Source of the DNA: an uncultured Gammaproteobacteria bacterium
Lineage (GTDB): Bacteria > Patescibacteriota > Microgenomatia > Levybacterales > UBA12049
Reading direction: 5' to 3'
NCBI GenBank assembly: GCA_964564035.1
Contig: CAZLZN010000003.1
Location: 13,995-77,994, forward strand
Length of the DNA stretch: 64,000 nt
In this document: positions 15,998-63,296 of the stretch, piece by piece
How positions within the stretch are numbered: the stretch's first letter is position 1
Layout: every line of letters begins with the position of its first letter
Program-made: the position numbers and the translations under genes
The notes under the pieces: model-generated
What the model was told of the DNA's origin: nothing
Databases searched by the model: none
The model's input: the letters and a program-made list of their open reading frames with translations, nothing else

Positions 15998-18403
15998 TCA
16001 GTCTAATGTGTAACTTATACTGCCGGTTCCGTCTACAACAAAACTCACAGTTTTGCCTCGAATAATTTCCGAATTCAGCTTTCCGCGAGCCAGCAAATCT
16101 TCTATATTTGACTGTATATACCTGCGAAGCGGCCTCGCCCCGAACTGCGCATCATAACCGTCTGTAGCGATCTTATTTACCACCGCTTCATCAAACCTCA
16201 CATGAATATCCTGTTTTGCCATCTCGCTTATTAGATTTTTAAGCATCAGATCAATTACAAGCTTTATTTCGGCGGCTCCGAGCGGTTTGAAAACAATAAT
16301 ATCATCAAATCTATTCATCAGCTCCGGCTTGAATATCCTGTTTTCTTGTAAATGGGCAAGAAGCCTCGCCTTAAATTTCTTATCCACAGAACCGCCCTTC
16401 TCGATTTCTTCGCGGATAAATTCCGATCCGGCATTTGATGTAGCAATTATCAGCGCATTTCTAAACGAAACAGCCTCACCCTTATTATCGGTCAGCCTGC
16501 CGTCATCAAGAACTTGAAGAAACAAATCATGTACCTTCGGATGCGCTTTTTCAAACTCATCAAGCAGTACGAGCGATGAAGGGTTTTCGCGGATTTTATC
16601 TGTAATCTCACCGCGCTCATCACCCTTACCGGGAGGTGCCCCCAGCAACCTCAATAACCCCACCTCATCATTGTATTCACTCATATCATATCTGAGCATC
16701 TTACTTTCTCCTCCATAATAAAGATCACAAAGCGCTCTGGCAGTCTCGGTTTTGCCGACACCGGTCGGCCCCAAAAACAAGAACGAAACCGGTTTGGAAG
16801 ACATGGATATTCCCGACCTGACACGCCTCAAAGCTTCGGCAAGAGACACTACTGCGTCATGCTGGGCAATTACCCTCTCATGCAATTTGCCTTCTAGGTG
16901 AAGCAGTAATTCAATCTCTTTCTTATCCGGCATGGAAATAACCACATGGGCTATTTCCTCGACATATTTTACAATATGCTCAGCCTTTACCAGCTTATGC
17001 TTGGTGCCTTCAAAAAATGGCTCATTTGAGAGGGCTACTTTATTTGAAACACTCATCAAAAGCGAAACCGCGCTTCCCGGAAGCGACAAGTCATGAATAT
17101 ACTTCTCGGCAAGCTCGACCGCGCTTACTATTGCCCTGTAACTGATAATTACCTTGTTTTTCCGCTCAATTTCTCTAACTTTATCCATTACCATCTTAAT
17201 TGCTGTATTTAAGTCGGTTTCTGTCATTTCAACCAAAGTAAACACTTCCTTGATCGGATTACGCTCTAAAAACATTTTATAACTGCCTTTGGATATGGTC
17301 GCTATTATTGGAAGCTTACCCGATTGAAGATGAGGTATTAAAGCACCGGATATATCCATGCCGTAAGAAGATGCACCCATCAGGTTTTGAAATTCAGGTA
17401 TATAAAGTATTACATTCCCCGAATGCGATACCTCTTCAATAATTGTTAAAAGTCTCGACTCAAGCTCATTTCTGCTAATTGCTCCCGCCATAAATGCCCC
17501 GGGCATCAGCTCCAATACCTCTCGGCCGTTAAGGACGGGTCCTATATTATCCGAAAAACTGTGCCACGCGAAGGCCTTGACCAGATTTTCCCGCCCGCTG
17601 CCGGGATTGCCGACAATCAGAACATTATTGTTCTCGGCTCTAATCAAACCCTCAAGAAGGGTTTTAAATTCTTTTTCACGTCCAGTAACTAACCCTTTAT
17701 TCTGCAAAGCAACATTCGTGTAATTTCTGGTATATTTTTTTGTCTCAGGCGTCCATCCCGTTATAAGAAACTCTCCGACGCCGCCTCCACTAATATGAAA
17801 ACGTATCTTCTGGGGATTTTCTTCGCTGTCAAACTCCCCCCGGATTTTAGGCACCAAATTCGCCAAATCTTCAAATTTTAACTGCTTAGCAAACATCAAT
17901 TTGGTATCATTTTCGGACAACATCAAAATGGCGACAAACAAATCCAGCACTGTAACAAATTTCCCATGAAAAGTTTTTGCCACTTCAAGACAGCTTGCAT
18001 AAACTGCGTCGCTTGGCAGATCAATATTTTTAAAATCATCTTTGGTCATTGCTGTCTTATTCATAAAATATTTAATTTGCGGATATTTAAATAGCTTTAA
18101 TAAAATTTCCCGAGTGTTTATCGAACTAAAACATATCATCAGTGCTTCCAGAGAAAAAGACTCAAATGGATCTTTTCCGCTGTTTTTATCTACGGTAATT
18201 TTGGGCACGGATTTACAGATCTTGAATCTAAAAAATATCTCAAAAATAATAAATAAATTGACCAAAAAAATCTCGATCCTGGGTATATTCCCGCTCTCTG
18301 CTTGATAAACAATAAGCAAAAATAATACACAAAACAAAACCAGTCGCATCAGCCTGACCAATGGCCGCCGAAAATTTAAACAAAGCTTAGCAAATAATTT
18401 CAT
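15998..18403 (-). CDS. Membrane-anchored Hsp100/Clp-family double-AAA+ protein with degenerate first nucleotide-binding domain
   Basis: 801 aa with two N-terminal TM helices and a Clp_N-like region. D1 Walker A reads GNPGSGRE (nt 17588-17611; K to R, T to E) and D1 Walker B reads ILYIPEF (D to P). D2 is intact ([20 protein letters not shown], sensor GARPLRR). I saw no I/L-G-F/L ClpP loop. Confidence 0.8.
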   Translation of the reverse strand: MKLFAKLCLNFRRPLVRLMRLVLFCVLFLLIVYQAESGNIPRIEIFLVNLFIIFEIFFRFKICKSVPKITVDKNSGKDPFESFSLEALMICFSSINTREILLKLFKYPQIKYFMNKTAMTKDDFKNIDLPSDAVYASCLEVAKTFHGKFVTVLDLFVAILMLSENDTKLMFAKQLKFEDLANLVPKIRGEFDSEENPQKIRFHISGGGVGEFLITGWTPETKKYTRNYTNVALQNKGLVTGREKEFKTLLEGLIRAENNNVLIVGNPGSGRENLVKAFAWHSFSDNIGPVLNGREVLELMPGAFMAGAISRNELESRLLTIIEEVSHSGNVILYIPEFQNLMGASSYGMDISGALIPHLQSGKLPIIATISKGSYKMFLERNPIKEVFTLVEMTETDLNTAIKMVMDKVREIERKNKVIISYRAIVSAVELAEKYIHDLSLPGSAVSLLMSVSNKVALSNEPFFEGTKHKLVKAEHIVKYVEEIAHVVISMPDKKEIELLLHLEGKLHERVIAQHDAVVSLAEALRRVRSGISMSSKPVSFLFLGPTGVGKTETARALCDLYYGGESKMLRYDMSEYNDEVGLLRLLGAPPGKGDERGEITDKIRENPSSLVLLDEFEKAHPKVHDLFLQVLDDGRLTDNKGEAVSFRNALIIATSNAGSEFIREEIEKGGSVDKKFKARLLAHLQENRIFKPELMNRFDDIIVFKPLGAAEIKLVIDLMLKNLISEMAKQDIHVRFDEAVVNKIATDGYDAQFGARPLRRYIQSNIEDLLARGKLNSEIIRGKTVSFVVDGTGSISYTLD

Positions 18404-18405
18404 AG

Positions 18406-18723
18406 TTATATAAATAAAAATATTACGGTCAATACAGGATAAAAAACAAAAAACACCAGCACAGCCGCCTCAACAGTAAGTATTAAAGAAAAAATAACTG
18501 TATCCACTGTTAAAATACAAATTTTCGTCAAAATTCCGATAGCTCTCGAAAAACCGACCAACCCGGACCTGTATTCATTTTTGAGCGGTTTAAAAAAAGT
18601 CACTAAACTCAGCCTGTATGCAAATAATTCGACAAAATATCCGTTAAAGGACCTGAATACGGCAAGCATTTCAGCCGGAGCTTCATAAAACCAAAATTTT
18701 AAAAATTCCCAGATCAATTTCAT
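18406..18723 (-). CDS. Small membrane protein (2-3 TM), unknown function
   Basis: 105 aa and hydrophobic. Its stop is 2 nt from the start of the downstream Clp-like gene, so the two are probably translationally coupled. Confidence 0.5.
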   Translation of the reverse strand: MKLIWEFLKFWFYEAPAEMLAVFRSFNGYFVELFAYRLSLVTFFKPLKNEYRSGLVGFSRAIGILTKICILTVDTVIFSLILTVEAAVLVFFVFYPVLTVIFLFI

Positions 18724-18785
18724 GAGTTTTATCAGTTATTAGTATAAGTATAAAAATTACGAGACCAAATTACAACGCGGCGGCA

Positions 18786-20543
18786 TCAGGATTTAAACAG
18801 ATTCTGAAAAAACAGCAAAATCACCGCAATCATTTTCATAATCAGTTCTATAAGGGACGACATAATGTCTTTCCCGCCGGAACTACTATCTCCGCCTGTT
18901 GGCGTCTTTGAGATGCTTCGCGACACATTCGGAGTAACAGTTGATTGCGTGCCGCCGCCCTGCGTGGGTACAACTGCGGGCGTCGATGTAGCAGTTGTAT
19001 TAATTACGGGAGTAGCACTCGGCACGGCCGTTGGAGTCTTGGATATACATTCCTGCGCGCCAAGACAATAAATTGTAGGAGTTACATAATACGAAGTCGG
19101 ATTTTGAATAATAGTTGGTGACAGCGTCGGGGAAACAGTATTCGTAGGCACAACTGTCGCGGAAGCAGTAGGGCTAACGCCTGTGCCCGCGCCCAAAGCT
19201 CCGGCAGCATTGACTCTGCCGTATGCCCAATACTGACCAGTACCCTGAATTTTATCGGCAGTATCCGTGATCCTTTTAACCACCTCGCTTGCCGAACTGC
19301 CGTATTGACTCGCCCAAATCAGACCCGCAACACCTGCAGTAACAGGTGTAGCCATTGAAGTACCGTCCAGATACCCGTAAGTTGTCTGTTGATTCTTTTG
19401 CTGCTGCAGCGTAGATGTTGTTCTCGGAAAAGTCGATAGAATCTTACTGCCCGGCGCCGCTATATCAACCCACGTGCCGTAATTCGAAAAAGAAGATTTT
19501 TGGTCTTTATTATCTGTTGAGGAAACACAAAGCACATTTGTGTTCGCGCAGGGATACATTTGCTGAGTATTCCCATTGTTTCCGGATGACGACACAACTA
19601 CTATCCCCTTATTCCACGCGTAATTTATCGCGTCCTGTTTAGCTGTAGAATTAGTACTTGATCCGAAGCTTATATTTACTACTTTTATATTTTGATCGGC
19701 AGCCCACAGCAATGCCTCGATCCACACAGAATCCGGACCCTTTCCGCTATCATCAAGGGCTTTGGCAATTACCAGCTGGCAATCTGGACAAACTCCCGCG
19801 ACCCCCTGGGAATTATTTGTAACTGCACCTATTATTCCTGCCACATGCGTACCATGACCATATACATCATTCATACTGGTTCCGTTAAAAATCTTTTTAA
19901 CAGCTATTTTTGATGCCAGATCAGGATGCCCCTCATCAATACCGGTATCTATGATCGCAACTCTTATGCCTTGCCCTCTTGATACATCCCACGCCAAATC
20001 GGCATTTATATCCGCGTTAGCCGTTCCCGTTCTTCCTTCAACCGTTTGCCCCGTATTAATTAATGCCCACTGCATACCGATTGAAGTATCATTCGGTACG
20101 AAATTGATCTCATTGATATAATCACGCTCCGCAGACTCAACAAGATCATCTCTAAGCAGCTCTTGCAATACCGCTTCTCCCCGCCCATCGGGAACTTTTA
20201 TAACTAGCCTGCTAATCGCATCCAGTCTTTTTACAACCTCAGCTTCATATTTTTTAAGTATTCCCTGAATTTGCTCGTCGGTTGCATTATCTTTATATCT
20301 GACTATTAACTGATCCTCAACATATCTAAGGTCACTTAACGAAACAGTAGGACTCGGAACCCTGGTAGGCGCAGGCAAAATAACTGTATCTTGCTGATCT
20401 TCTCGGCCTAATAATATGTACCCGGCCGCCAAAACAAAAATTAAAAAAAGTAGTATAAAAAAAGTTATCTTCTTGCGTCCGAATCCTTGCTTAGATTGAA
20501 TTTTTTCCGGATCCTTTTGTGGTGGAAAAATTTCGTCTTGCAT
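18786..20543 (-). CDS. Subtilisin-like serine protease (peptidase S8) with N-terminal TM, inhibitor-I9-like propeptide and T/P-rich C-terminal tail
   Basis: Catalytic triad contexts VAIIDTGID, HGTHVAGII and GTSMATP. The N-terminal anchor is ITFFILLFLIFVLAAGYILL. The C-terminal 94 aa contain CLGAQEC, a PT-rich stretch, GGKD and a terminal helix. Confidence 0.85.
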   Translation of the reverse strand: MQDEIFPPQKDPEKIQSKQGFGRKKITFFILLFLIFVLAAGYILLGREDQQDTVILPAPTRVPSPTVSLSDLRYVEDQLIVRYKDNATDEQIQGILKKYEAEVVKRLDAISRLVIKVPDGRGEAVLQELLRDDLVESAERDYINEINFVPNDTSIGMQWALINTGQTVEGRTGTANADINADLAWDVSRGQGIRVAIIDTGIDEGHPDLASKIAVKKIFNGTSMNDVYGHGTHVAGIIGAVTNNSQGVAGVCPDCQLVIAKALDDSGKGPDSVWIEALLWAADQNIKVVNISFGSSTNSTAKQDAINYAWNKGIVVVSSSGNNGNTQQMYPCANTNVLCVSSTDNKDQKSSFSNYGTWVDIAAPGSKILSTFPRTTSTLQQQKNQQTTYGYLDGTSMATPVTAGVAGLIWASQYGSSASEVVKRITDTADKIQGTGQYWAYGRVNAAGALGAGTGVSPTASATVVPTNTVSPTLSPTIIQNPTSYYVTPTIYCLGAQECISKTPTAVPSATPVINTTATSTPAVVPTQGGGTQSTVTPNVSRSISKTPTGGDSSSGGKDIMSSLIELIMKMIAVILLFFQNLFKS

Positions 20544-20560
20544 AATTAGATCTGCAAATT

Positions 20561-23500
20561 CTATTGCGGCTTATTATCGGGCGTCACTAATACCGGATCA
20601 CCGGCAAAACCCGGCTGACTGTTTAACAGAGGATTTTGAATTTGCGGATTAGCAAATTGCGCCTGGTCTGCAGGCAAAGGATTGGTCTGAGACGGCATAC
20701 TTTGCTGATTTGGCATCACGTTAACTGCGCCTGCCGGTGCCGGCATCACAGACGCCGGATCTACAGACGGCATAGGGGACACCGGTGCCTGCTGTGCCGT
20801 ACCGAACGGGAAATTTTGCGCAGGATCCGCTGGATTTATACCGGGCTGAGCAAGTTGATCAATTACAGCATCCTGCGCTTGGACATCCGGTCCGGTGGTC
20901 GGTTGCTGAGCATTTACCATGCCTTGCGCCTGAACTTCAGGTTGGGCTTTGCTTATTGAACCAACCACTGCTCCGGTTGACGCTTCTATCGCGTCTATTA
21001 TGAGAGATGCTATCTCGTCATTTTGCTGTTTCGCCTGGAATAATTGCTCTGATAATGCTTTTATATCCTCAGGAGTTGAAGCATCATTTACGCTCAAAAC
21101 GGACGATGCTACCTTATTGCCTTTTTGAGCCGCATCGTCAACTTTGGTATGTATTGATGTAAACAACTCCTTTTCTTCCGGTGTTTTACAAACTAGCGGA
21201 TTTACTATATACAATAGCGGTGTTTTTATCTGGATCACATCATTTTGCGCGACAGCATCCTGTATAACTGCCAATATTTCGGCTGCCAGCGGATCCCCCT
21301 GCTTCCGAGCGTCCTCAAGCTGCATCTGCAGTTGAGCAATATCCTCATCAGACGTTATATCTGTGATTGACATAATCCGCTCGGCAAGCGGATGATTTTG
21401 TCGTCCTGCTTCATTAATTTTGTCATGGATGTCCGAAAACTTTTTCTTATTCTCCGGCTCTGCCAGATACAGCGGATTACCGATCTGCCTCATGAATTTC
21501 TTGAATTTGGTAGCCGGCTGCGCTTCTGTTTGTTTTTGAGCCTCCTGCGTAATCTCATTATTTATAAATGACAGTATTTCAGTCGCGAATTCGTTCTCGT
21601 TTAGCTTGCCTTTATTCAACTCATCAAAAATACTGCCGACTTCATCAATTGTAGACTCCTGTTTAACACTCAGTATTGATGCCGCAAGCTTATTATTATT
21701 CTGGCTTTCGACAACTATCCTGTCATGAAGCTCTTTATAACTGCTGCGTTTCAGCGCAGACGTAACAAGCTCGGGGTTAACAAGCTGTATGAGAATTTTT
21801 TTCTGTTTTTCAAGCGCCTTCAATTGCTGTACTACACCGGCCGCTATATCAAGTATTTCTCCGGCAAGAGCGTCACCGTCCGTTTTCGCTTTTATTAATT
21901 TCTCGCGAATATCGCCCGCTTCTTTATCGGTCGTCCCGCTATTAACAGCCAAAATCACGGTATAAACCGGGTTCAGGCCATTGCTGGCTGTGACCACTTT
22001 CTCATGCAGTTTACCGAATATTTCTTTGTCATAATCGGACTTGATACTTACCGGATCGGCAATTTTTTGCAAAATCACTTTAAATTCCGCATCGCTTAGA
22101 TCTGCCGAATCGGCTTTCTGGCCGCCTTTGCTGAATATAAACTCATTAACATCCTCGTTGTAGTCTATAACTATTGTATCTCCGACTGAAAATTTCTTTG
22201 CAATGATCGCAAGCGCTATCGGATTTTCAACAGCCGTCTGAATAAGTCTGCGCAAAGGCCTCGCCCCGTACACCGGATCATACCCGTCCTTGGCAAGCTT
22301 GGCGACAGCCTTTTCGGTTATCTGCATCATATAACCCTGCTCTTTCAAAAGTTTGGCAATTTTCGCCATTTCCAGCCTCACTATTCCCGCCATATGCTCC
22401 GGGCGCAAAGGCTTGAAAATCACAACCTCATCAAAACGGTTAAGCACCTCGGGACGCAGGAATTTTATAAGCTCTTCTTTTACTATTTTCTGAAGTTCGC
22501 CGAACTGCTTTGTCGCCTGTTCCCCTGTAAGTTTTACATTTTTATCTTGTTTGCTCAAATATTGCTGAATCATCGCGCTTCCGATGTTTGACGTACAGAT
22601 CACTATAGTATTTTTAAATGAAATTACATTGCCTTTGTTATCGGTCAAACGTCCGTCTTCGAGAAGCTGAAGCAGTACATTAAACACATCAGGATGCGCT
22701 TTTTCAATTTCGTCCATAAGCACTATTGAATAAGGTTTTTTCCTGACAGCCTCTGTTAAAACTCCGCCCTCCTCATAGCCTACATAACCGGGAGGCGCAC
22801 CTATAAGCTTCGCCACTTCATGTTTCTCCATGAATTCCGACATATCCAAACGCGCCATCGCGTCATCGCGCCCGAATAAAAGCTCAGCCAAAGTTTTTGC
22901 GAGCTCTGTTTTACCAACGCCCGTCGGGCCCAAAAATATAAACGAAGCAGTTGGTCTTTGTCCTGATGCGAGACCAATTCTTCCTCTTCTGACAGCCTCG
23001 GATACAGCAACAACTGCCTCTTCCTGATCAATAAGTCTTTGATGGATTCTGTCTTCAAGCTTAAGCAGCTTTTCACTTTCATCTTCAGTAAGCTTGGTTA
23101 TAGGAATTCCGGTCCACGCACTTACAACTTTCTCAATATCACTCTTTTTGACCTCGGAATCCCCTCTTTTTCCGCCGTCTACTTGTAATTTGACCTCCGA
23201 ACAGCCTTCGTCCAATAGGTCTACAGCCTTATCTGGCAGATATCTTTCGCCTATATATTTTTTCGCGAGTTTTATGGATTGCTTTAATGCATCATCAGGT
23301 ATTTTGACCTTGTGGAATTTTTCATATTTCGGGCGCAAGACCTTCATCATCTCAAGCGCGTTCTCATCGCTTGGCTCCTCCGCTGTTACGGGTTGAAATC
23401 TGCGCTCAAATGCCTTGTCTTTTTCAAAATGCTTCCTGTATTCGGTGGTTGTGGTAGCTCCTATAATTTGTAACTGACCGCGCGCCAAATAAGGCTTGAT

Positions 23501-24745
23501 AATATTCGCAGCGTTCATACCCTCGCTCTCGCCCGCCCCCATTAGTGAGTGTATCTCGTCTATGAACAGAATAATCGTTCCGTTCGAGCCTAATACTTCA
23601 GAGACAACAGCCTTAAGTCTTTCTTCAAATTCACCTCTATGACTTGCTCCTGCAACCAGACTTGCTACATCAAGCTGAAACAATCTTTTATTCAAAAGGT
23701 CTTTCGGCACGCCGTTTGCTACAATTTTCTGCGCAAGACCTTCAACAATTGCTGTTTTGCCGACTCCGGTTTCACCGATAATAATGGGGTTATTTTTGGT
23801 TCTGCGAAGAAGTATATGCACTATCCTGTCAACCTCTTTTTCTCTCCCTGCAACGGGATCCAGTTTCCCTTCTCTGGCTTCCTGCGTCAAATCAATTGCA
23901 TACTTCTCAAGAGTAGATTTTCTCCCAAAACCCCCCGTAGAAGATTTTGACAGCTTTTCTACAACTACATCTTTTTTTAATCCCTGAGCCTTAAGCATTG
24001 GCTCCGTATTATAATTTGGGGTAAACAAAACAATTAATATATCCTCAGGCGCAATAAAAGCAGAACCCCTCATCTTTGCGTCTCTGTATGCCTGTTCAAA
24101 AACCTGCTGGGATACCTGGCTCAATACCGGCTGACCCTGATAAGAGCCCATTCTTTCTTTAGCCTGAATCTCTTTTGAAAGCTTGCCTACATCAACAGAA
24201 AATTCCCCTAGTAGCTTACTGACCTGTTCGTCATAAAGAAGCCCCAAAAGAAGCTGTTCAGGCTCTATATACTGCTGATGTATTCTTCTTGCTTCTTCTT
24301 GTGAATGATTAAGAACCAGGCTTGCTCTGGGATCCAAATGCGCTAGCGGTGACATATCCACTTTGGCACCGGCTTGCACTTGCACAGCAGCCTGCTGACC
24401 CTTGGGTAAACCGGCACCCGGATGCTGCTGATCCGTAGTCTGAGCGTTTATGCTTACCTGACTTGAACCGTCTCCCGCCTGCACTCCGGCGCTTTGTACT
24501 GCTGTATTCGGATTTGCGCCTGTCGCCGCCGGTACCGGCTGTGTTGTTTGTGAATAACTGGCACCTGCACTTGTGACGCCTGACTGATTTTGCGAAACGC
24601 CTACTTGTGCGCTTTGAATATTATTTGGATCACTTTGTGCACCCTGGCCGGACACTGGACCGGATTGTGTCTGTACCGCAACCTCGGTAGTTTGAGTATC
24701 TTGTGTGCCGTCTTCTTTTTTTTGATTAAATAATTTCCCGAACAT
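20561..24745 (-). CDS. Hsp100/Clp-family double-AAA+ ATPase (ClpA/B/C-like) with disordered N-terminus and ~520-aa repeat-bearing C-terminal extension
   Basis: 1394 aa. A Q/S/G-rich N-terminal ~125 aa is followed by Clp_N repeats. D1 has GETGVGKTA and LFIDEIH, and D2 has GPTGVGKTE and [11 protein letters not shown]. There is almost no M-domain and I saw no ClpP tripeptide loop. The extension (nt ~20564-22126) holds 4 'IANP-type' repeats and ends in a Q/P-rich tail. Confidence 0.85.
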
Positions 24746-24808: not shown

Positions 24809-27800
24809 TTAACTCTTTATTTCCTCTTCTTTTTCCAGGTTGTTTTCTTCTGTTGAATTTTTGACTTCAACATCAACTTTCTCTTCTTGAGCCTCACTAG
24901 TCTTGAGTTCAGACAGCACTGTATTTGCTGCTTTTAGTTTTATCCTTAGATAATTAACGATTTCAGAATATGAGAATCCGCCGAGTAAAAGGAAAGGCAG
25001 AATAGCTCCGACTTTTTGCATACCCTCATTTTTCCGCTCAACTTCATCGGAAAGCAGGAGGGCTATTGTGCCGCTTATATTCTCGATATCTTTCTCGATC
25101 CACTCTATTCTTCCCTTTTTGTCATCACTAAACCCGAAAGGCACAGGCAAAGTTCGATAATTTTCCTCCCACATCTTTTCAATCTCCGAATAATCCTTGT
25201 CTGACACGGACTGAAGTCTGTTGTCGGACGGAGCTACAGCCGGACTTACGCTGGACATAACAGATTTGGCCAGTTTGTCATCTTTTTTACTTGCGTCGTT
25301 TAGATCTTTCTTCAACTGCGCAATCTCTTTAGCTCCTGTTGTCGGTTTTACATCAAGAATTGATTGCGCAAGCTTATTGCCTGCCCTTGCTGATTCTGAA
25401 AGCTCACTATGAAGCTTGCTGAATCTTTCTTTACTAGCCTGAGAGACAATCGGGCTCGGGTTAGCTATTTGCTGAATAATTTTCTTGAAGTTATTGATCT
25501 CCGCTTTATTATTTATTGTATTTACAACATTTTGTGCAAAAGGAACCCCCTTATTAGCCTCATTAATTAATTCGTCATAAATGCTCTGTACGCCCAACAG
25601 GGAAATGTCTTCTTTTATAGCAAGTATTTTTTGCGCGGTTTCATTTTTATTTTGCTCGGTCTCCCTCTGTAAAATATCATGCAATTCTTTGTATTGCATT
25701 TTTTCGGATTCTGATACAAGTTCAAGTTTCACTATATTCATAAGCTCGCTCTTCACCAAAGCCATAGGAACTGCAGTCTGAGCTTTATCCGGTACGCTGT
25801 TTCGTGATGCAGACAATACGGATTCAGCGGTTGCGTTGCCCTTTTGTGTTTCTTCCTCAAGTTTTATTCTGAGCTTCTCAATGGACTGTTTTTCCGCAGG
25901 ATCGGCAGCTCTCCCCGGCTCCGCGATCTTCTCAAGCACTTGTCTCATTTTTTGGATTTCAGCTTTCTTGTTATTATCTTTGGACAGTGCTATAGACTCA
26001 TACCTCGCTATGTCTTTGAGGCTCGGCACCTTCAAATTGACCATTGCGAGTATCTCATTTGATACTTGAGGCGTAACAATAGTTGAAGTTGCGGCCTGAG
26101 GCACAGAGACTTCTACTGATGGGGCCTCAACTGAGACAGCCATAGCCTGCTGTGCCGACGCTTGTTTGGTTTCGACTGTAACTTTTGTTTCTTCCTCGGC
26201 TTTTAGAGATTCAAGAACTTCTTTTGCGGCCTCTTGTTTTGTTTGAAGATATGAAACAATTTCAGCTTGAGAGAATCCTCCGACTAACAGGAAGGGGAGT
26301 ATATTGGATACTTCCGAAAGACCTTGATTGACCTGCTCCTGATCTGCCGATGTGAGAAGGCCGATAAGGTTTCCGATCTTATCAACATCGTCTTTCATCC
26401 ATTCCGCTCGTGTCCCGGACATTCCCTCCGGCACTTCCATATTCTGATAGTTTTCTTTCCACATCTTTTTGACTTCGGCAAGTTCTTCCGGTGTAACTGT
26501 CTGGATACGGTTGGTTTGGGGAAGTGTAATAGGCTGCGGAACTTCTCCCATGACAGTAGACGCCACAGATTCTCCCTTTAACTGGGCTTCTTTCAATTTT
26601 TCACTGAGTTTCTGAATATCTGCTGTTGATGTTGATTTATTTACACTAAGTATCGACGTAGCAAGCTCATTGCCCTCCTGACTTGCTTTAGTTATTGAAT
26701 CATGCAGCTTGGTCAGCCTCTCACGGTCTGCCGTTGATGCAGCTGTTGCCGGATTCGCGATTTGAGCAAGTACCTGCCGTACTTTTTGGGATTGCACCGA
26801 TTTGTTGACTGTCGATATAACGGTGGTTGCCAATACATTACCCTGGACTTGCGCTTTCTCAAGCTGTTCTTTTATCTTTTTCAGCTCATCAACAGATGTG
26901 TTGTCATTAACTGAAAGTATCGTTGTAGCAAGTTCATTTTTCTTATCATGACTCTCAGACAGTAATGCCTCATGAAGCTTATTAAACGATTCTTTTTCCG
27001 ATTCGGACGTTACGGTCGCAGGATTCGCGATCTGAGTCAGTATATTTTTAATTTCACTTGCCTGAATCGACGCAAATGACACATGCGCCGCGGACGCGCC
27101 GGCAGCCGCCAGGACTATACTTGCTGTCGCATTTCCTTTCTGCCCCTCCTCAAGAAGCTTCTCCCGCAGTTTATCAAACTTAACGCGCTCTGTTGAAACA
27201 GCAACGCTTGCGGGATTAGCGATATTCTCAAGAGTTTCTTTGACTTTTTGCACTTCAACTGCCTTTGATTTATCTCTCGACAACGACATCGAATCAAATC
27301 TGGCAATATCCCTCATTCTCGGCACCTTCAAATTGACCATTGCGAGTATCTCATTTGATACTTGAGGCGTAACAATAGTTGAAGTTGCGGCCTGAGGCAC
27401 AGAGACTTCTACTGATGGGGCCTCAACTGAGACAGCCATAGCCTGCTGTGCCGACGCTTGTTTGGTTTCGACTGTAACTTTTGTTTCTTCCTCGGCTTTT
27501 AGAGATTCAAGAACTTCTTTTGCGGCCTCTTGTTTTGTTTGAAGATATGAAACAATTTCAGCTTGAGAGAATCCTCCGACTAACAGGAAGGGGAGTATAT
27601 TGGATACTTCCGAAAGACCTTGATTGACCTGCTCCTGATCTGCCGATGTGAGAAGGCCGATAAGGTTTCCGATCTTATCAACATCGTCTTTCATCCATTC
27701 CGCTCGTGTCCCGGACATTCCCTCCGGCACTTCCATATTCTGATAGTTTTCTTTCCACATCTTTTTGACTTCGGCAAGTTCTTCCGGTGTAACTGTCTGG

Positions 27801-30568
27801 ATACGGTTGGTTTGGGGAACCTCCACCTGCTTAGATGCGATATCCAGAACATCGGCCGCGACCCCGACGCCCTTACTGCGTGCTTCACTAAGCTTCTCGC
27901 TGAGCTTCTGAATATCGGCTGACGAAGTAGATTTACTGACAGACAACAATGAAGTGGCAAGCTCATTTCCTTTTTGACTCTCGCTCTTAAGTGCTTCATG
28001 AAGTTTTGTCATCTTCTCCTTGTCAATAGCAGAAGCAGTCGATGGATTGGCGATCTGCTGCAGAACGCTTTTGACCCGCGTTACGTTTTGAGCCTGCTGT
28101 AAACTGCTGTTAATAGTCGAAATGACTTGCGATGACATTGATGACTCTTTTGTCTGCTGAAGCTTTTCGCTTATTTTCTCAAGCTCAGCTTGAGTCGTAG
28201 TATCTTTTACAGATAAAATTTGAGACGCCAGCTGATTATTGTTTTCCTTGCTCTCGCGCGCGAGCATATCGTGGATCTTAGACATCTTCTCACGCTCTAC
28301 CGCGTTGTTAATAGATGCAGGATTTGCGATTTGCTGTAGAACGCTCTTTGTTTTATTTATTGTCTCGGCTCTTTGCAGACTGCTGTTTATTGATGACAAG
28401 ACCTGTGAAGACATAGCCGTGTCTTTCGTTTGCTCAAGCTTTTCGCTTATCTTTTCAAGTTCTGCCATCGTGGTCGTATCTTTTACCTGCAAAATTTGAG
28501 ACGCCAGCTGATTATTGTTTTCCTTGCTCTCGCGCGCGAGCATATCGTGGATCTTAGACATTTTCTCGCGCTCGACAGAGCCGGAAACAGAAGCGGGATT
28601 TGCGATCTGCTGTAGAACGCTCTTGATCTGAGTTGCTTTTACGGTATTTGAAACTGTGGACGCCACAGGATTACCTGACGCCTTTTCCCTAACCATTTGA
28701 TCCCTGATCTTATCAAGCTCGGTTGCCGTTGTTTTATCATTGACTGACAAAATTGTACTCGCAAGCTGGTTATTATTTTCCTTGCTTTCCCTTGAAAGCA
28801 TTTCGTTTAGCTGTGACATGCGCTCTCTGTCTATTACATTTGTGGTTGACGCTGGATTTGCGATTTGCTGTAGAATGCTTCTGAACTGAGAATCGGACAC
28901 TTGCACGCTTCTCTGAGATTGATTTCTGACTGCGTTGCTGACTGCGCTCAAAATCGTCGTCGCGATCAAATTCCCCTGCTGACTTTCCCTGACCAATCTT
29001 TCATTCATGCTGACATATCTCTCACGGTCGGCAGCAGACATGATCGAAGCCGGATTGCCGATCTTTTCAAGCATTTCCCTCATTTGCATTATCTCCTGCC
29101 TTTGACTTGCGTTATTCGACACCATTGAAGAATCATATCTGGCAATATCTCTCATTGTAGGTAGCGGGATATTTGCAAAACTGATGACCTCGGCATTTAT
29201 CTGTGCCATAGGCATACTTACCATTGCATTTCCGACGCTTTGCGACTGCGTTTGCACCTGGCCGGCAACAGATGTACCTTTAAGCTCCGCTGCTATCTCT
29301 TTCGCAGCGCCGCCGGGCGACTGCAGTATTGGCTTAAACGAAGGCAAAGTAACCGACCTTTTCGTAAACGGCAAAGTAAGAGCAGTGCCGGCAGGAGCCG
29401 CAGGACCGCCGCCTGGCGCGGTTGGAGGCACCATTTTATTACTCACAACAGCAAGCATATTTTTCATCATCGCGTTCTCACCGGCAAACTGCGCGGAATA
29501 TTCTAAAAATATTTGCAGAAGAATCCACGGCAAAAGTATAACCATCCACAACATTATGAGCGCCACAACGTACAGCATGAACGTCTCTGTCAAATTCACG
29601 CTGTTAGTCGGAGTAACAAACTGTTTTGGTCCTCCAAGCAATATATTAACCGCTGTCGGAAAAATGATCCTGGTAGGATCTTGAATCGCCGGATTGCCAA
29701 ACTGCAAAGGAATAGCCTGGCGCCACATAAAGACCAGCCCCTGTAGAAAAATTGCGAACAGCGGCCCATACAAAAGCCATCTGAAAAACTCTCCGATCCA
29801 GATTTTACCCGTGTTCCTGACAGGATAAAATAAAAGTAAAAGCGGGAAAATAGGAGAAATTATTATAAAAAACCACAAAATGATCTTTCTGATAAGTAAA
29901 ATGCCAACCATCACATAATAAGTCAGCGCTGTGAGCTTTGTGAGAAGCAAAGATATAAAAGCCGACTCCGCGTTATAATCTCCGAGAAGCCTCAGTCCTA
30001 CGAAGTTTTGATATTGCCAGCCCACATATAATAGATCAACCTGGGAAATACAATCCGGCGGACAGGAATTAGTACCTGATCGCAGGAAAAATCCCTGAAT
30101 CAAATCTGTAAACTGATATAAAAACTGTAGTATCGCGTAGGATAGGGATATGAGTATCAATACTGCCGTAAACCTAGGAATAAACCTCATTATGGTCAAA
30201 CTCCTGCCGCGGGTGACTATAATTATCATCGATGTTGCCAAAATAACGAGTAATAAAAGAGGCAGTACGATCCATTGAACGATTGTCCACCAAAAAGCGG
30301 CAAGAGGATTATTGGAGTTGTCGCAATTTCTGTCTGCTACCTTGGTAACACAAACCCACTGATAATTTTCGAGAGTCCAGTCCAGTGTGAGTCCTGAACG
30401 AGCGGCGTTCTTGCCTATAAAAGTAACCTCAGGATCCACAACCCACAAACCTCCCGTCGGAGCGGCTTGGGGCGGAGGCTGAGCATTGACTACCGAAATC
30501 GGAAATACCAAGCTGAATCCGCAAAATAATATTGCTAAAAGAACGGGCAGAATTCTTTTCATTTTCAA
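24809..30568 (-). CDS. Giant (1919 aa) polytopic membrane protein (VirB6/TrbL-like context) with three repeat super-modules
   Basis: Signal peptide plus about 6 TM helices in aa 1-360 (nt ~29488-30568). Three super-modules follow, each made of an anchor motif ([IL]P..[MR|LK]DIAR[YF][DE]S), 3-5 'IANP' repeats of ~90 aa and a ~110-aa module (..MWKENYQ..ILPFLLVGGFSQAEIVSYL). Its start overlaps the pilin gene stop by 4 nt. Confidence 0.8.
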   Translation of the reverse strand: MKMKRILPVLLAILFCGFSLVFPISVVNAQPPPQAAPTGGLWVVDPEVTFIGKNAARSGLTLDWTLENYQWVCVTKVADRNCDNSNNPLAAFWWTIVQWIVLPLLLLVILATSMIIIVTRGRSLTIMRFIPRFTAVLILISLSYAILQFLYQFTDLIQGFFLRSGTNSCPPDCISQVDLLYVGWQYQNFVGLRLLGDYNAESAFISLLLTKLTALTYYVMVGILLIRKIILWFFIIISPIFPLLLLFYPVRNTGKIWIGEFFRWLLYGPLFAIFLQGLVFMWRQAIPLQFGNPAIQDPTRIIFPTAVNILLGGPKQFVTPTNSVNLTETFMLYVVALIMLWMVILLPWILLQIFLEYSAQFAGENAMMKNMLAVVSNKMVPPTAPGGGPAAPAGTALTLPFTKRSVTLPSFKPILQSPGGAAKEIAAELKGTSVAGQVQTQSQSVGNAMVSMPMAQINAEVISFANIPLPTMRDIARYDSSMVSNNASQRQEIMQMREMLEKIGNPASIMSAADRERYVSMNERLVRESQQGNLIATTILSAVSNAVRNQSQRSVQVSDSQFRSILQQIANPASTTNVIDRERMSQLNEMLSRESKENNNQLASTILSVNDKTTATELDKIRDQMVREKASGNPVASTVSNTVKATQIKSVLQQIANPASVSGSVEREKMSKIHDMLARESKENNNQLASQILQVKDTTTMAELEKISEKLEQTKDTAMSSQVLSSINSSLQRAETINKTKSVLQQIANPASINNAVEREKMSKIHDMLARESKENNNQLASQILSVKDTTTQAELEKISEKLQQTKESSMSSQVISTINSSLQQAQNVTRVKSVLQQIANPSTASAIDKEKMTKLHEALKSESQKGNELATSLLSVSKSTSSADIQKLSEKLSEARSKGVGVAADVLDIASKQVEVPQTNRIQTVTPEELAEVKKMWKENYQNMEVPEGMSGTRAEWMKDDVDKIGNLIGLLTSADQEQVNQGLSEVSNILPFLLVGGFSQAEIVSYLQTKQEAAKEVLESLKAEEETKVTVETKQASAQQAMAVSVEAPSVEVSVPQAATSTIVTPQVSNEILAMVNLKVPRMRDIARFDSMSLSRDKSKAVEVQKVKETLENIANPASVAVSTERVKFDKLREKLLEEGQKGNATASIVLAAAGASAAHVSFASIQASEIKNILTQIANPATVTSESEKESFNKLHEALLSESHDKKNELATTILSVNDNTSVDELKKIKEQLEKAQVQGNVLATTVISTVNKSVQSQKVRQVLAQIANPATAASTADRERLTKLHDSITKASQEGNELATSILSVNKSTSTADIQKLSEKLKEAQLKGESVASTVMGEVPQPITLPQTNRIQTVTPEELAEVKKMWKENYQNMEVPEGMSGTRAEWMKDDVDKIGNLIGLLTSADQEQVNQGLSEVSNILPFLLVGGFSQAEIVSYLQTKQEAAKEVLESLKAEEETKVTVETKQASAQQAMAVSVEAPSVEVSVPQAATSTIVTPQVSNEILAMVNLKVPSLKDIARYESIALSKDNNKKAEIQKMRQVLEKIAEPGRAADPAEKQSIEKLRIKLEEETQKGNATAESVLSASRNSVPDKAQTAVPMALVKSELMNIVKLELVSESEKMQYKELHDILQRETEQNKNETAQKILAIKEDISLLGVQSIYDELINEANKGVPFAQNVVNTINNKAEINNFKKIIQQIANPSPIVSQASKERFSKLHSELSESARAGNKLAQSILDVKPTTGAKEIAQLKKDLNDASKKDDKLAKSVMSSVSPAVAPSDNRLQSVSDKDYSEIEKMWEENYRTLPVPFGFSDDKKGRIEWIEKDIENISGTIALLLSDEVERKNEGMQKVGAILPFLLLGGFSYSEIVNYLRIKLKAANTVLSELKTSEAQEEKVDVEVKNSTEENNLEKEEEIKS
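26022..26523. repeat. 502-bp perfect direct repeat, copy A (inside the giant gene)
   Basis: Compared line by line with 27318-27819 and found identical. The offset is 1296 bp (432 codons), so it is in frame. Confidence 0.9.
27318..27819. repeat. 502-bp perfect direct repeat, copy B (inside the giant gene)
   Basis: Identical to 26022-26523. The flanking bases differ (g/t on the left, g/c on the right). Confidence 0.9.
28160..28711. repeat. Two tandem 276-bp coding repeat units (92-aa IANP repeats), with ~95-nt near-identical cores
   Basis: Cores 28202-28295 and 28478-28571 differ at only a few positions (..aaaatttgagacgccagctgattattgttttccttgctctcgcgcgcgagcatatcgtggatcttagacat..). Confidence 0.85.
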
Positions 30569-50992: not shown

Positions 50993-51979
50993 TTAAAAAA
51001 GATGGTTATCTGTTAAATGCGCTCCTCTTGAAGGATAATTTATAATAGTCTTTTGCACTTCTTCAACTTCTGACAATTTTGAAGTTAGCTCATCAACATC
51101 TTTTTTCTGAACTATCAAATGAATATCTTGCCCTGTATTGACTGTGAAATACACCTCCAGACCTTCGCTTCTCCACTTTTTTACCAGATGCATTATTTTC
51201 AGACTCGCAGGAAGAAGATAGATCAAAGAAGGCGTACTGGTCAGCATTATAGAGTGAAGTTCCAAAGCCTCAGCCTCCAGAAGTTCCCCAAAACCTGTAA
51301 AATTTTTATCATTCATAAGCTTCTTTATTTTATCTATTTTTTCCCTCATGTGGTTTTTCCGTAATTCAAAAAACGGACTTGAAGCGGCAAGTTTCTGGCC
51401 GGAAGTTGTGCTGACTTCTTTTTTATTTTTACTGACAACAGCGACCACATCCGCGATATCCCAATAATCAGGCTTAAATATCGATACGGCATAAGACGCA
51501 TCCGACGAATCACCATCCAGCCATTCAACAAACCCGTCAGGAATCGAACGGCATGCAGATCCCGAACCTTGCCTCGCGAGAATCGACAATTCTTTTTCCG
51601 GTAAATTTAGTCCTGCCGCGCTAGCCGCTGCAACCGTCAAAGCCGCGAATCCGGACGCGGACGAAGATAACCCTGTTCCGCTCGGAAAATTATTATTGGT
51701 TACGACCTTCGCGCGGTCCATTATATTCACGGTTTTTCTTATTCGATCCAGATGCACAATAGCCCTGTTGCCTTCATTTTCTTCCTGAATACCGTTGATA
51801 ATAATTGTGTCTTGTTTATATTCGGAGCCAAACTCAACAGTCGTTGTTGTAAGCAAATTACTTAAACACATCGATATGCTTCCGTTCTCAGGAAGCCTGA
51901 GTACCTCATCCTTCTTTCCCCAATATTTTATAAACGCAATATTTGATGGTGCTACAGCCGTCGCTTTCATATCTATCAT
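50993..51979 (-). CDS. mvaD: Diphosphomevalonate (or phosphomevalonate) decarboxylase
   Basis: APSNIAFIKYWGKKD, the GHMP motif PSGTGLSSSASGFAAL and an SGSACRS motif. Confidence 0.85.
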   Translation of the reverse strand: MIDMKATAVAPSNIAFIKYWGKKDEVLRLPENGSISMCLSNLLTTTTVEFGSEYKQDTIIINGIQEENEGNRAIVHLDRIRKTVNIMDRAKVVTNNNFPSGTGLSSSASGFAALTVAAASAAGLNLPEKELSILARQGSGSACRSIPDGFVEWLDGDSSDASYAVSIFKPDYWDIADVVAVVSKNKKEVSTTSGQKLAASSPFFELRKNHMREKIDKIKKLMNDKNFTGFGELLEAEALELHSIMLTSTPSLIYLLPASLKIMHLVKKWRSEGLEVYFTVNTGQDIHLIVQKKDVDELTSKLSEVEEVQKTIINYPSRGAHLTDNHLF

Positions 51980-52089
51980 TAATTATATACAAGTCGTTGC
52001 CCATTTTGCATATTATTTCATCCAAAATGGGCGTGCGTTTGTGTCTACCCGTAGCAAATTCATTTGCAAGTGGTATAACAAAAATCTGT

Positions 52090-53923: not shown

Positions 53924-53930
53924 ACTTAAC

Positions 53931-54989: not shown

Positions 54990-55019
54990 TTATTTAATTA
55001 ATCTACTGCGGCAGAAAAT

Positions 55020-55424
55020 CTAATCGATCAAATCTTTAAGCTTCAGATATTCCAGTATCATCCGACCCGTAACTGATGTCTTATCTCCATCTTTTGACGT
55101 GAGCCATCCCGTCTCCTCAATTTCTGATGAAGGCCTGATCTTACCAGTGAAATCCCCCGAATAACACTTAATCCTAACCATTATCCCCTCGGGTTTTCCA
55201 AATGCCTGCGCGGTAAAAGACTCTAAATACTTTATCGTGTCGGGTATCAGATCGATCGAAAGCTCTTCCTTTACCTCACGCGTAAGCGCTTGGATATCCG
55301 TTTCTCCCGCGTCTCGTTTCCCGCCCGGCGTAAGCCATGCACTGCTTCCTTTACTGCGCGCGGCTAGGACCTTCCTGTCTTTAACTAAAATATACCCTAA
55401 TTTATCGATAAAATTAACGTTCAT
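55020..55424 (-). CDS. NUDIX hydrolase
   Basis: Nudix box GGKRDAGETDIQALTREVKEELSI in a 134-aa protein. Confidence 0.75.
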   Translation of the reverse strand: MNVNFIDKLGYILVKDRKVLAARSKGSSAWLTPGGKRDAGETDIQALTREVKEELSIDLIPDTIKYLESFTAQAFGKPEGIMVRIKCYSGDFTGKIRPSSEIEETGWLTSKDGDKTSVTGRMILEYLKLKDLID

Positions 55425-55427
55425 TTT

Positions 55428-55730: not shown

Positions 55731-55734
55731 AATT

Positions 55735-58016: not shown

Positions 58017-58020
58017 AATA

Positions 58021-58120: not shown

Positions 58121-58122
58121 TC

Positions 58123-59280: not shown

Positions 59281-59335
59281 ACGTTCAATATAATAGACGT
59301 AAAAAATCCCAAAATCATTCGTTTTTATATAATTC

Positions 59336-59344: not shown

Positions 59345-59350
59345 ACATTT

Positions 59351-61265: not shown

Positions 61266-63296
61266 TTATATTCTAAACAGTCTCGATATAAGTTCCAAAA
61301 TTTTGGTAATTAATTCAAGAAGTATCAAAATTAACCCCCTGCTATTATCTCGACCCCCCGGATTTATTGGGACTGAACTTACCGCAGGTACAAATATAGT
61401 CGGAGAGGCACCTATCGGCGTGGTCACCTGTGGTGTAACTGAATTATTACCTGTCATAGTAGGACTTAAACTAATAAGCGGCACAAGCGTTACTCCGCCC
61501 GAAGCGGGCGCTCTCGTCAGCGTAATTGACGGCACGCATGGCCCGAGACAATTAAACGACGGCACGAGCACCCCCTCTTTATATATTGCTCTAAAAGTGG
61601 TCTTATTTACGGGTGTTTTAATTTTATGTACTGCCGGTCCCCGGTCCGACCAGGAATCAAATGTAAAAGTACGCCCGTCAATTTCAACAGTAGATTTGGC
61701 TCCGATTTCCCGCTCAAATCCTACAACGCCCTCAACCGAAAACGGCGTTTTTCTTGGCTGGCCGTCAATCGTCAGCTCAATTCCAGATGGCTCGCTAACA
61801 AAATCCATAATTGCGGTATTAGGCAGCACATCCCGGGTTATCTCCTTTGTCTCATTTCTGGAATTGGTAACCGATAAAAATATCCTGTACTTTATTGAGG
61901 GCTCGGCTTCACCTGTTACACCTGTTGTAAACAAACCTGTTTTACTTCCCGATGACCAGTCGGCAAAAGGATGAGTGTGGTCATTATGAACTGTCTCAAC
62001 CTTCCATCTAAAAGCGCTTGCAGGAATCGCGCCGTCCCGGGCATCTGTCGCGCTTCCCTCATAATTAATAGTATCTCCCGCAGTATATTTCGCGCCCTCA
62101 GCCGGAACATTAATCACTGCCTGAATAGATGTATTTACAGGCGCAGAAGTAACTGCCTGAGTTGGATTGGCCCCTGTTCCGTATTGAATTCTATATACAG
62201 ATCCCTTGCTGTAGCTTAGATAATAAATCTGCCCGTTACCGCCAACTCTCAAATCTACAGGACTACTAAGCCCGGTCACGAAATTTACAACCTGATTATT
62301 GGAAGGATTTAATCTCTTTATCCAATTACCCAGATAGTCTGCAAAAAAATAATTACCGTTATATTCAGGCGGATAATTTCCGCCGTTATAAAAAACCCCG
62401 CCCGTTATAGCTCGGCCAACACTGCGGCCGTAAGCGTGTATCGGATTTAGAAACCCTCTGTTACATGTGCCTTCACAGGTCGGCCATCCGTAATTTCCGC
62501 CCTTTTGGATATCATTAATTTCTTCAAAGCTTCCTCCTCCCACATCATTAACAAATATTTTACCGTTTGTACTGTTAATTGCAAAAGTAAACGGATTGCG
62601 AAGCCCATATGCCCAAATCGACCTATTTACACCGGTAGTACTTTGATAAAACGGATTATCCTCCGGAATAGTGCCGTCTTTATTAATCCTAAGCAGCTTG
62701 CCCGCTATTGTGTTTAGAGATTGAGAATTTGATGGCGTATGTCCTTCGCCAACTGCAATATATAATTTACCATCCGTCCCGAAATGAAGCGCTCCGCCGT
62801 TATGATATCCTGCTTGAGATGGAATATTATCAAGTATCACGCTCTGGCTTCCCGTAGCGGCAATATCCGGATTTGAAGCATCGGCAGTATATCTCACAAC
62901 TCTATTAACAGACCTGCCGCTATCCGTATAGTAAATATAAACAAATCTGTTTGCGGCAAACTCCGGATCAACAGCTATGCCAAGAAGTCCTCGTTCGCCG
63001 TCTGTTTTTACGCTAACCTGCAAAAATGACTGCGCAAGTAGAACTCCGTTCTTGACCACTCTCAGATTCCCTCCTTTTTCCGCGACCAATATTCTCCCGT
63101 CAGGCGTAAATTCCATAGTGGTCGGCTGTCTCAGACCCGTTACTACTTGAAATTCCTGAAAACCGGGGGGATATGTTTGAGCTCTCGAAGTAATAGTCTG
63201 TTTCTGCTGTCTTGCAAAATACATTGACATAGCAAGACCCGCAAAGAGTACCAGGGATAAAAACACCAAAACAACAGGCAGTATTCTTTTTGGCAT
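61266..63296 (-). CDS. Secreted PQQ-dependent sugar dehydrogenase-like beta-propeller (GSDH family) with Ig-like domain and T/P-rich C-terminal tail
   Basis: N-terminal TM/signal, then GERGLLGIAVDPEF..RFVYIYYT, GGALHFG.DGKLY and GLRNPF. A HTHPF-containing beta domain follows. The last 95 aa contain CLGPC, a PT-rich stretch, GGRD and a terminal helix. Confidence 0.7.
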   Translation of the reverse strand: MPKRILPVVLVFLSLVLFAGLAMSMYFARQQKQTITSRAQTYPPGFQEFQVVTGLRQPTTMEFTPDGRILVAEKGGNLRVVKNGVLLAQSFLQVSVKTDGERGLLGIAVDPEFAANRFVYIYYTDSGRSVNRVVRYTADASNPDIAATGSQSVILDNIPSQAGYHNGGALHFGTDGKLYIAVGEGHTPSNSQSLNTIAGKLLRINKDGTIPEDNPFYQSTTGVNRSIWAYGLRNPFTFAINSTNGKIFVNDVGGGSFEEINDIQKGGNYGWPTCEGTCNRGFLNPIHAYGRSVGRAITGGVFYNGGNYPPEYNGNYFFADYLGNWIKRLNPSNNQVVNFVTGLSSPVDLRVGGNGQIYYLSYSKGSVYRIQYGTGANPTQAVTSAPVNTSIQAVINVPAEGAKYTAGDTINYEGSATDARDGAIPASAFRWKVETVHNDHTHPFADWSSGSKTGLFTTGVTGEAEPSIKYRIFLSVTNSRNETKEITRDVLPNTAIMDFVSEPSGIELTIDGQPRKTPFSVEGVVGFEREIGAKSTVEIDGRTFTFDSWSDRGPAVHKIKTPVNKTTFRAIYKEGVLVPSFNCLGPCVPSITLTRAPASGGVTLVPLISLSPTMTGNNSVTPQVTTPIGASPTIFVPAVSSVPINPGGRDNSRGLILILLELITKILELISRLFRI

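Follow-up and report, generated by a model that had tools for sequence, protein, structure and literature searches.

A Cys-loop, stalk and amphipathic-helix cassette on exported enzymes of a probable Patescibacteria lineage

Described surface-retention devices and the cassette

In Escherichia coli, PBP5 is held on the outer face of the inner membrane by an amphipathic helix of 18 aa at its C-terminus (PMC2909392). Here we describe a cassette that is shared by two otherwise unrelated secreted enzymes, a subtilase and a PQQ-dehydrogenase-like protein, both encoded in a 64,000-nucleotide stretch of contig CAZLZN010000003.1 from an uncultured bacterium (the window hereafter), and by many further exported proteins. 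The order of its parts is fixed: a Cys-loop motif is followed by a spacer rich in P, T and S, often by a variable basic patch, and then by an amphipathic helix of 20 aa. Like the anchors of the low-molecular-weight penicillin-binding proteins (PBP5/DacA, PBP6 and DacD), the cassette combines a Sec-exported enzyme with an amphipathic helix of 18-20 residues and would call for no processing enzyme, and its helix is similar to the PBP5 anchor in hydrophobicity, hydrophobic moment and interfacial energy. Unlike the cassette, however, the PBP anchors have neither a Cys loop nor a 60-aa P/T/S stalk, they are not found in N-terminal, internal or multi-copy form and they are not common to dozens of enzyme families. 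There is no detectable homology between the two, as the PBP5 end scores only 7.9 bits against the hidden Markov model (HMM) of the cassette helix.

Three other kinds of described element invite comparison. The tripartite signals (LPXTG/sortase, PEP-CTERM/exosortase, PGF-CTERM/archaeosortase and GlyGly-CTERM/rhombosortase) resemble the cassette in being lineage-restricted and in occurring on many unrelated secreted proteins, and the C-terminal copies of the cassette share with them a hydrophobic helix that has one to three basic residues behind it. In the cassette, however, the motif lies ~62 aa upstream of the helix rather than next to it, more than half of the copies sit elsewhere than at the C-terminus, the majority of the helices are amphipathic and probably not transmembrane-competent, and there is no match to NCBIfam. 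Dockerin and SLH display modules are likewise promiscuous, are joined through P/T-rich linkers to proteases, glycoside hydrolases and lyases, and presumably retain enzymes at the surface, whereas the effector of the cassette is a single 20-aa helix and not a folded Ca-binding or SLH domain. Since dockerin-like repeats occur together with the cassette in L001 and in both L019 proteins, the two modules are not equivalent. Finally, generic P/T-rich linkers (the PF04886 'PT' repeat) have the same composition and the same predicted disorder as the spacer, yet the spacer is bounded by the C-x-G-x-C motif and a conserved helix, and its length is constrained.

The tails of the two window enzymes and their relatives

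The subtilase gene (18786..20543, minus strand, 585 aa) encodes, in this order, a signal-anchor, a fervidolysin-type prodomain (PF22148, aa 64-139), an S8 catalytic domain (PF00082, Peptidase_S8, aa 190-437) and the cassette, and a protein in public data, P0001, is identical to it. The hydrophobic signal-anchor (KKITFFILLFLIFVLAAGYILL, aa 24-45, 20409..20474) coincides with a helix predicted by AlphaFold2 at the same residues. The Cys-loop motif (YVTPTIYCLGAQEC, aa 486-499, 19047..19088) reads YVTPTIY-C493-LGAQE-C499 and passes into a P/T/S-rich spacer of 56 aa (aa 500-555, 18879..19046; pLDDT <50), after which the cap and the amphipathic helix, GGK-DIMSSLIELIMKMIAVILLFFQNLFKS, take up aa 556-585 (18789..18878); all of these lie on the minus strand. 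The helix is given by AlphaFold2 and by a helix-only HMM, which matches aa 556-579. In the AlphaFold2 model of the window subtilase, made with 33 homologues, the catalytic domain is confidently predicted, residues 455-558 are disordered (pLDDT <50) and a helix at 559-583 follows with a pLDDT of ~85.

The second carrier, a GSDH/PQQ-dependent sugar dehydrogenase-like gene (61266..63296, minus strand, 676 aa), has an N-terminal signal, a GSDH domain (PF07995, aa 55-367), ~200 aa that are unassigned and then the cassette, and is identical to the public protein P0121. Its Cys-loop motif (VLVPSFNCLGPCVP, aa 576-589, 61530..61571) reads VLVPSFN-C583-LGP-C587 and is matched by the motif-only HMM at aa 578-597. 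The spacer of 61 aa (aa 590-650, 61347..61529) is rich in P, T, S and V, and the cap and helix, NSRG-LILILLELITKILELISRLF-RI, form aa 651-676 (61269..61346), the helix-only HMM matching aa 651-675 with 22.8 bits; these parts, too, are read from the minus strand. Both proteins start with a hydrophobic N-terminal signal or anchor, and among the open reading frames (ORFs) of the window the cassette was found in these two only.

Compared directly by BLASTP the two tails are not significantly similar (E=1.5), and it takes profiles to reach significance. An HMM of 18 subtilase-family tails, in whose alignment C, G and C are invariant, scored four PQQ-dehydrogenase-family tails at 31.0-34.3 bits, as against 13.2 bits for the best of 4000 full shuffles and 24.0 bits for the best of 10,000 segment-preserving shuffles, in which the motif, spacer and helix segments were shuffled separately. 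The reciprocal HMM, made from the four dehydrogenase tails, gave the window subtilase tail 31.5 bits vs <=22.2 bits for decoys. The same tail is present in the subtilase homologues and in the three closest dehydrogenase homologues (P0122-P0124), and more distant homologues of either enzyme have different C-terminal ends. As the profile scores lie above those of all decoys and relatives carry the same tail, the two window tails are, judged from sequence profiles, homologous copies of one module. Chance compositional similarity of the tails was rejected on the segment-preserving shuffles.

These tails had been singled out beforehand by a reading of the sequence alone, which took them for a common module on unrelated secreted enzymes, and the profile scores bear this out. 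The coordinates, quoted sequences and lengths given by that sequence-only reading are correct throughout (tails of 94 aa, counted from C493, and of 95 aa, counted from N582, both on the minus strand), and the shared features that it listed are there, namely the Cys pair (C493/C499; C583/C587), the P/T/S-rich spacer and a terminal helix with a charged stripe. It also listed a GG[KR]D motif, which is not conserved across the family and is better described as a local form of the variable basic patch followed by the G/N/D cap that precedes the helix. Whether the likeness goes beyond PT-rich composition and whether further proteins carry the tail had been raised there as well; the true tails beat all segment-preserving decoys, and the module is found in 117 protein clusters.

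These clusters come from an exhaustive search of 1.84 billion representative proteins with the 18-tail profile at a cut-off of E<=1e-3, and nearly all of them align across the whole profile. A strict pattern taken from a 5-sequence alignment finds 8 genome loci and 11 metagenome loci. Column statistics over 115 cassettes give the motif consensus [VAL]-[TV]-P-[TS]-x-[YVF]-C-[LI]-G-x(1-4)-C-P-[TS], in which the C, G and C are present in every one of the 115, and which may form a small, disulfide-capable loop. The spacer has a median length of 62 aa (5-95% range 53-76 aa) in 112 cassettes selected with the profile; in subtilase and GSDH homologues that were chosen by their catalytic domain and not by their tail, 77-99 aa separate the motif from the end of the protein. 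Exactly one extra Cys occurs in 44 of the 112 spacers, typically as T-x-[DN]-P-C and often with a His/Lys-rich patch after it, and the 20 aa preceding the helix hold a mean of 3.9 K, R or H. The helix itself, 20 residues with a G/N/D cap before and a G cap after, follows the pattern φφ·xφφ·φφx·φφ·φφφ·φφ, in which φ stands for L, I or F and the dots mark the residues of a single narrow E/Q/K/R stripe; hydrophobic L/I/F pairs recur every 3.6 residues, and polar and apolar positions alike are conserved across cassettes. Both window tails represent a reduced variant, without the third Cys, with the basic patch down to K or R and with the helix at the very end of the protein.

This degree of conservation bears on the proposal that the tail has no specific function, being either a low-complexity linker, alike by convergence and closed by an unspecific hydrophobic end, or a dispensable pro-region at the C-terminus that is removed after secretion. 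The non-significant pairwise BLAST, the ~20-24 bits reached by decoys that keep the segmental composition and the commonness of PT linkers in secreted enzymes would all fit such a view. We nevertheless consider it very improbable, as none of the 10,000 and 8,000 segment-preserving decoys reaches the scores of the true tails, the tail profile gives <7 bits to PT-rich proteins that lack the end motifs, and the motif-only and helix-only HMMs match the same proteins and no others, to which are added the invariance of C-x-G-x-C in 115/115 cassettes, the conserved helix positions and the constrained spacer length.

The cassette is new to the domain databases that were searched. Pfam and NCBIfam release 20 gave no match at E<=1 for either window tail, and none of their models covers the cassette in the 111 carriers scanned, in keeping with the earlier statement that the tail matches no defined sorting-signal model. 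A profile search of the PDB returned only non-significant designed helical bundles or barrels (E>=0.5), and literature searches yielded nothing about the motif or about a sorting signal of Patescibacteria. An alignment of 55 cassettes had no match at E<=0.01 in a word-indexed collection of 5.8 billion proteins, a result that is likely an artefact since P0001, P0121 and others in that collection score 50-90 bits.

Among 115 new carrier clusters the cassette is C-terminal in 55, stands directly after the signal peptide and before the catalytic domain in 35 and is internal in 25, and its internal order is the same in all three positions. The carriers span 58 Pfam families of exported enzymes (111 carriers scanned). 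GH5 and CAP are the most frequent with 8 each, beta-helix and GH16 have 6 each, and metallophosphoesterase, GSDH, S8, beta-lactamase, alginate lyase, M28, A4, cupredoxin, GH39 and others are also represented. An N-terminal hydrophobic signal is found in 90 of the 107 Met-started carriers, and the remainder look like truncated gene calls. A GH12 enzyme with an N-terminal cassette (L005:400-1611), a Pel9A-like beta-helix protein with a C-terminal one (L007:8603-10225) and two subtilases, P0036 and P0025, in which the cassette lies between the protease and a polysaccharide-lyase or ConA-like domain, illustrate the three positions. Dockerin-like Ca-binding repeats (e.g. GDLNNDGFITTDD...DLNGNGQLADAGD) stand before or after the cassette in L001:3927-5942, L019:3-1868 and L019:2073-4508. 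Cassette genes are sometimes arranged in tandem, as in L003, L004 and L019, and some carriers have 2-4 helices per protein.

One family of secreted proteins contains no enzyme (L003:8318-9616, L003:9683-11581, P0244, P0246 and P0253). Its members combine an N-terminal anchor and a single Cys loop with 3-4 amphipathic helices, which are more polar, flanked by GG and joined by PT linkers; they also have a small four-Cys element, C-x-[DQ]-[DE]-A-x-x-C-x-D-G-S-x-V-G-R-x-G-P-x-C-x-F-x-x-C-P, and are possible scaffolds or envelope threads.

Two other kinds of tail were noticed among the subtilases and their relatives. In P0033, P0037, P0038 and P0055 the sequence FVCGGSPxSICTSPT is followed by a PT spacer, C-[LI]-[DN], a more polar helix (e.g. 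ERIREWVRGFLSKINNYIQLVLGNP) and the end PP-x-P-C-I-x-x, and from its sequence this variant, with its two additional Cys, may be related to the cassette and have diverged from it. A different recurrent C-terminal end after a PT linker, P-W-W-C-[RK]-[YFIW]-x-P-x-x-C-[KRNQ], is a terminal Cys loop with aromatics and is carried by P0068, P0069, P0078, P0082, P0092-P0094, P0098, P0099, P0102, P0110, P0112, P0117 and P0118.

Tether, docking helix or sorting signal

The cassette helix has a mean Eisenberg hydrophobicity (H) of 0.50 and a mean hydrophobic moment (µH) of 0.57, as against a µH of 0.21±0.01 for shuffles, and the moment peaks at 99-100 degrees, which is a period of 3.64 residues. The median Wimley-White interfacial sum is -3.0 kcal/mol before any gain from helix formation, compared with -2.7 for melittin, -3.5 for the PBP5 anchor and +12.4 for GCN4. 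On these scales the helix falls in the class predicted to seek the membrane surface, as do melittin and the E. coli PBP5 anchor. Because the Hessa insertion sum has an overall median of +7.5 kcal/mol, most copies are probably not translocon-inserted transmembrane helices. The C-terminal copies are more hydrophobic, with a median Hessa sum of 5.6 vs 8.7 and 9.5 elsewhere (Mann-Whitney p=7e-5), and 10 of 46 C-terminal copies have a sum of <=1 kcal/mol, which is compatible with a transmembrane helix, and mostly end in G-[KR]. As to the window proteins, the 20-aa helix core of the subtilase (aa 560-579) has an H of 0.73, a µH of 0.40 and a Hessa sum of +0.7 kcal/mol; in the dehydrogenase the values are 0.54, 0.60 and +4.3 kcal/mol, and E661, K665, E668 and R672 make up the single polar stripe.

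Based on these data we propose that the cassette acts as an autonomous membrane-surface tether on a stalk of fixed length, with no need for a processing enzyme, a proposal whose chances we judge to be about even. After Sec export, the helix would partition into the outer-leaflet interface of the cytoplasmic membrane, with the basic patch facing anionic head groups; C-terminal versions of higher hydrophobicity may span the membrane, the window subtilase helix (+0.7 kcal/mol) possibly among them. The stalk of ~60 residues would then hold the catalytic domain and the Cys loop at a fixed distance, in or through the envelope, and a dedicated processing enzyme would not be required. In the case of the subtilase, autocatalytic removal of the prodomain would cut the mature protease from its N-terminal signal-anchor, and the tail would then keep the protease on the cell.

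The tether is supported by the physics of the helix, by the constrained spacer, by the export of the carriers, by the AlphaFold2 helix that follows a disordered stalk and by the precedent of PBP5. A beta-helix-like protein, L004:616-2439, which adjoins a normal cassette protein, has the same Cys motif (PPYVTPTLYCLGLSINKC) and spacer, after which the amphipathic helix is replaced by a classical transmembrane anchor with a basic tail (IIGGAFLLIPLILGATIYYLQIRRKQK; RRKQK). This replacement and the greater hydrophobicity of the C-terminal copies argue for a lipid environment of the helix rather than a protein partner.

A protein partner is what the next explanation would have, in which the helix mediates docking or oligomerisation and bundles either with itself or with the multi-helix, membrane-anchored, enzyme-free proteins as scaffolds, in a cellulosome-like assembly on the cell surface. 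The enzyme-free proteins described above, whose 3-4 helices are more polar, speak for it, as do the tandem cassette genes of L003, L004 and L019 and the extra Cys of 44/112 spacers, which could form an intermolecular disulfide; the weakest echoes in the PDB, though not significant (E>=0.5), are designed helical barrels. We consider docking unlikely, as the period of 3.64 residues differs from the 3.5 of canonical coiled coils, ~14-15 of the 20 helix positions are L, I or F, and the single-copy helices group with melittin and the PBP5 anchor and not with GCN4. Moreover, the copies at the C-terminus tend towards wholly hydrophobic helices with basic ends, a classical transmembrane anchor takes the place of the helix in one paralogue, and a dockerin-like module already stands beside the cassette in L001 and both L019 proteins. 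A canonical coiled coil or a dockerin docking module as such was rejected on the period of 3.64, not 3.5, and on the lack of a Pfam (PF00404) match in the tails.

Several points weigh against the tether. Binding to the membrane is read from physico-chemical scales, and the spacer-length statistics of the 112 cassettes are biased through the profile-based selection. The model gives no role to the invariant Cys loop, nor to its position ~62 aa upstream of the helix, which is kept even in N-terminal copies, and it leaves the single extra Cys in 44/112 spacers unexplained. In the enzyme-free multi-helix proteins the Wimley-White sums are +2 to +8.5 kcal/mol, values that fit protein-protein association better than lipid binding. 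As the Cys loop, the extra Cys and the polar multi-helix proteins are not accounted for by a tether, docking or oligomerisation stays alive. The assignment of the cassette to a lineage, given below, is likewise drawn from record labels and from named relatives of the catalytic domains and not from phylogeny. Two further-reaching ideas, which together we regard as rather unlikely, are a Patescibacteria-wide surface display, in which single-helix enzymes would dock onto scaffolds of the L003/P0244/P0246/P0253 type as a helix-based counterpart of the cellulosome, and a helix that, like a lytic peptide, would insert into the host-cell membrane of epibionts and plant proteases and glycanases there.

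The sequence-only reading had spoken of a sorting or anchoring module; anchoring is plausible in the light of the above, and the likening to a sorting signal was not supported. Against that analogy, drawn to LPXTG, PEP-CTERM and GlyGly-CTERM tails, stand the 60 of 115 copies that are not C-terminal, the 2-4 helices that a single protein can have, the ~62 aa that separate the motif from the helix and the polarity of most helices. A true C-terminal sorting or anchoring signal could still be envisaged for at least the C-terminal subset, with the helix as a stop-transfer segment that serves as a plain bitopic anchor or is cleaved by a sorting enzyme. In its favour, the window subtilase helix is nearly transmembrane-competent, the 10 of 46 C-terminal copies at <=1 kcal/mol mostly end in G-[KR], and, like sorting signals, the module is shared promiscuously among the secreted proteins of one lineage. 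The position of the copies and the distance of the conserved motif from the helix oppose it, however, and so does the basic patch before the helix (mean 3.9 K/R/H), which runs counter to the positive-inside expectation for an anchor with its N-terminus out and its C-terminus in. A recognition motif of the sortase type adjoining the hydrophobic segment is absent, only the G/N/D cap directly preceding the helix.

Nor was an enzyme that would act on such a signal seen in the sequence covered. There is no NCBIfam sorting-signal match, and the sortase signature TLxTC was not found in any ORF of >=100 aa in the 64 kb window, where the sequence-only reading had already seen no sortase-like gene. When the ORFs of all fetched loci (flanks <=20 kb) were clustered, no gene family recurred beside cassette genes in general; only the subtilase-specific Clp-like genes and a 105-aa membrane protein did so. 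Taken with the evidence on both sides, a C-terminal sorting signal appears quite improbable.

Two simpler candidates were also set aside. The motif could be mistaken for a lipobox (C-L-G-S-C), but it lies >=480 aa from the N-terminus in the window proteins, and in N-terminal copies it stands ~20 residues past the h-region, after an AxA-like site (P0279/L005). A plain bitopic transmembrane anchor as the general explanation is opposed by the N-terminal and internal copies and by the insertion energies; a membrane-spanning helix in N-terminal copies would leave cellulases, GH12 and CAP domains in the cytoplasm.

Genomic surroundings, lineage and significance

The window subtilase belongs to a conserved cluster of four genes (window 15998-24745), consisting, in this order, of a ClpB-like ATPase of 1394 aa with a long Q/P-rich C-terminal extension (20561-24745), the subtilase, a hydrophobic (membrane) protein of 105 aa without a Pfam match (18406-18723) and an AAA+/ClpB-D2 protein of 801 aa with a hydrophobic N-terminus (15998-18403). 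Four distinct genomes, with subtilases that are only ~50% identical, share this gene order; besides the window, the loci concerned are L001, L002, L016 and L009-L012. A link between the tail and the Clp/subtilase cluster, which had been suggested from the sequence, thus stands as synteny in four genomes for the subtilase gene and was not seen for other cassette carriers. Directly upstream of the cluster lies an ORF of 1919 aa with an N-terminal signal peptide (24809-30568), for which Pfam gave no match at E<=0.001.

Elsewhere in the window, a run of minus-strand genes (50993-59373) is, by eye only, what we take to be a mevalonate-like pathway; its candidates, assigned in the same way, are presumably an HMG-CoA reductase (58123-59373), an archaeal-type HMG-CoA synthase with a thiolase-like partner (55735-58028) and GHMP-kinase-like genes (52934-54989). 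Window positions 1-64000, scanned with Rfam and for tRNA genes, yielded no tRNA, tmRNA or Rfam family at gathering score.

Three cassette proteins (L001, L004) come from one metagenome-assembled genome (MAG) named 'Patescibacteria group bacterium', and the nearest named relatives of both catalytic domains belong to candidate division WWE3, Levybacteria, Roizmanbacteria, Woykebacteria and Minisyncoccia. The G+C content is 41-46% in the window and in the metagenome cassette loci. The cassette is also found in two MAGs labelled 'Gammaproteobacteria', labels that are unchecked. The lineage that carries the cassette is probably Patescibacteria, as indicated by such labels and relatives.

Patescibacteria (the candidate phyla radiation, CPR) make up a large share of bacterial diversity and are mostly uncultured. 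To our knowledge, essentially nothing is known of how such small cells retain degradative enzymes on their surface. The kind of device described here, a surface tether borne on a linker with an amphipathic helix as its anchor, is a known one, and for the cassette this function is predicted. The cassette would offer a sequence handle for the surface-exposed proteome; it marks at least 58 families of exported enzymes, including proteases, cellulases, glucanases, lyases, beta-lactamase-like proteins, CAP proteins and PQQ dehydrogenases, and its recognition would improve the annotation of hundreds of tails now called 'hypothetical'. If the tether is true, it would provide a simple anchoring mechanism without a processing enzyme, and the stalk, constrained in length as it is, may report the thickness of the cell envelope.

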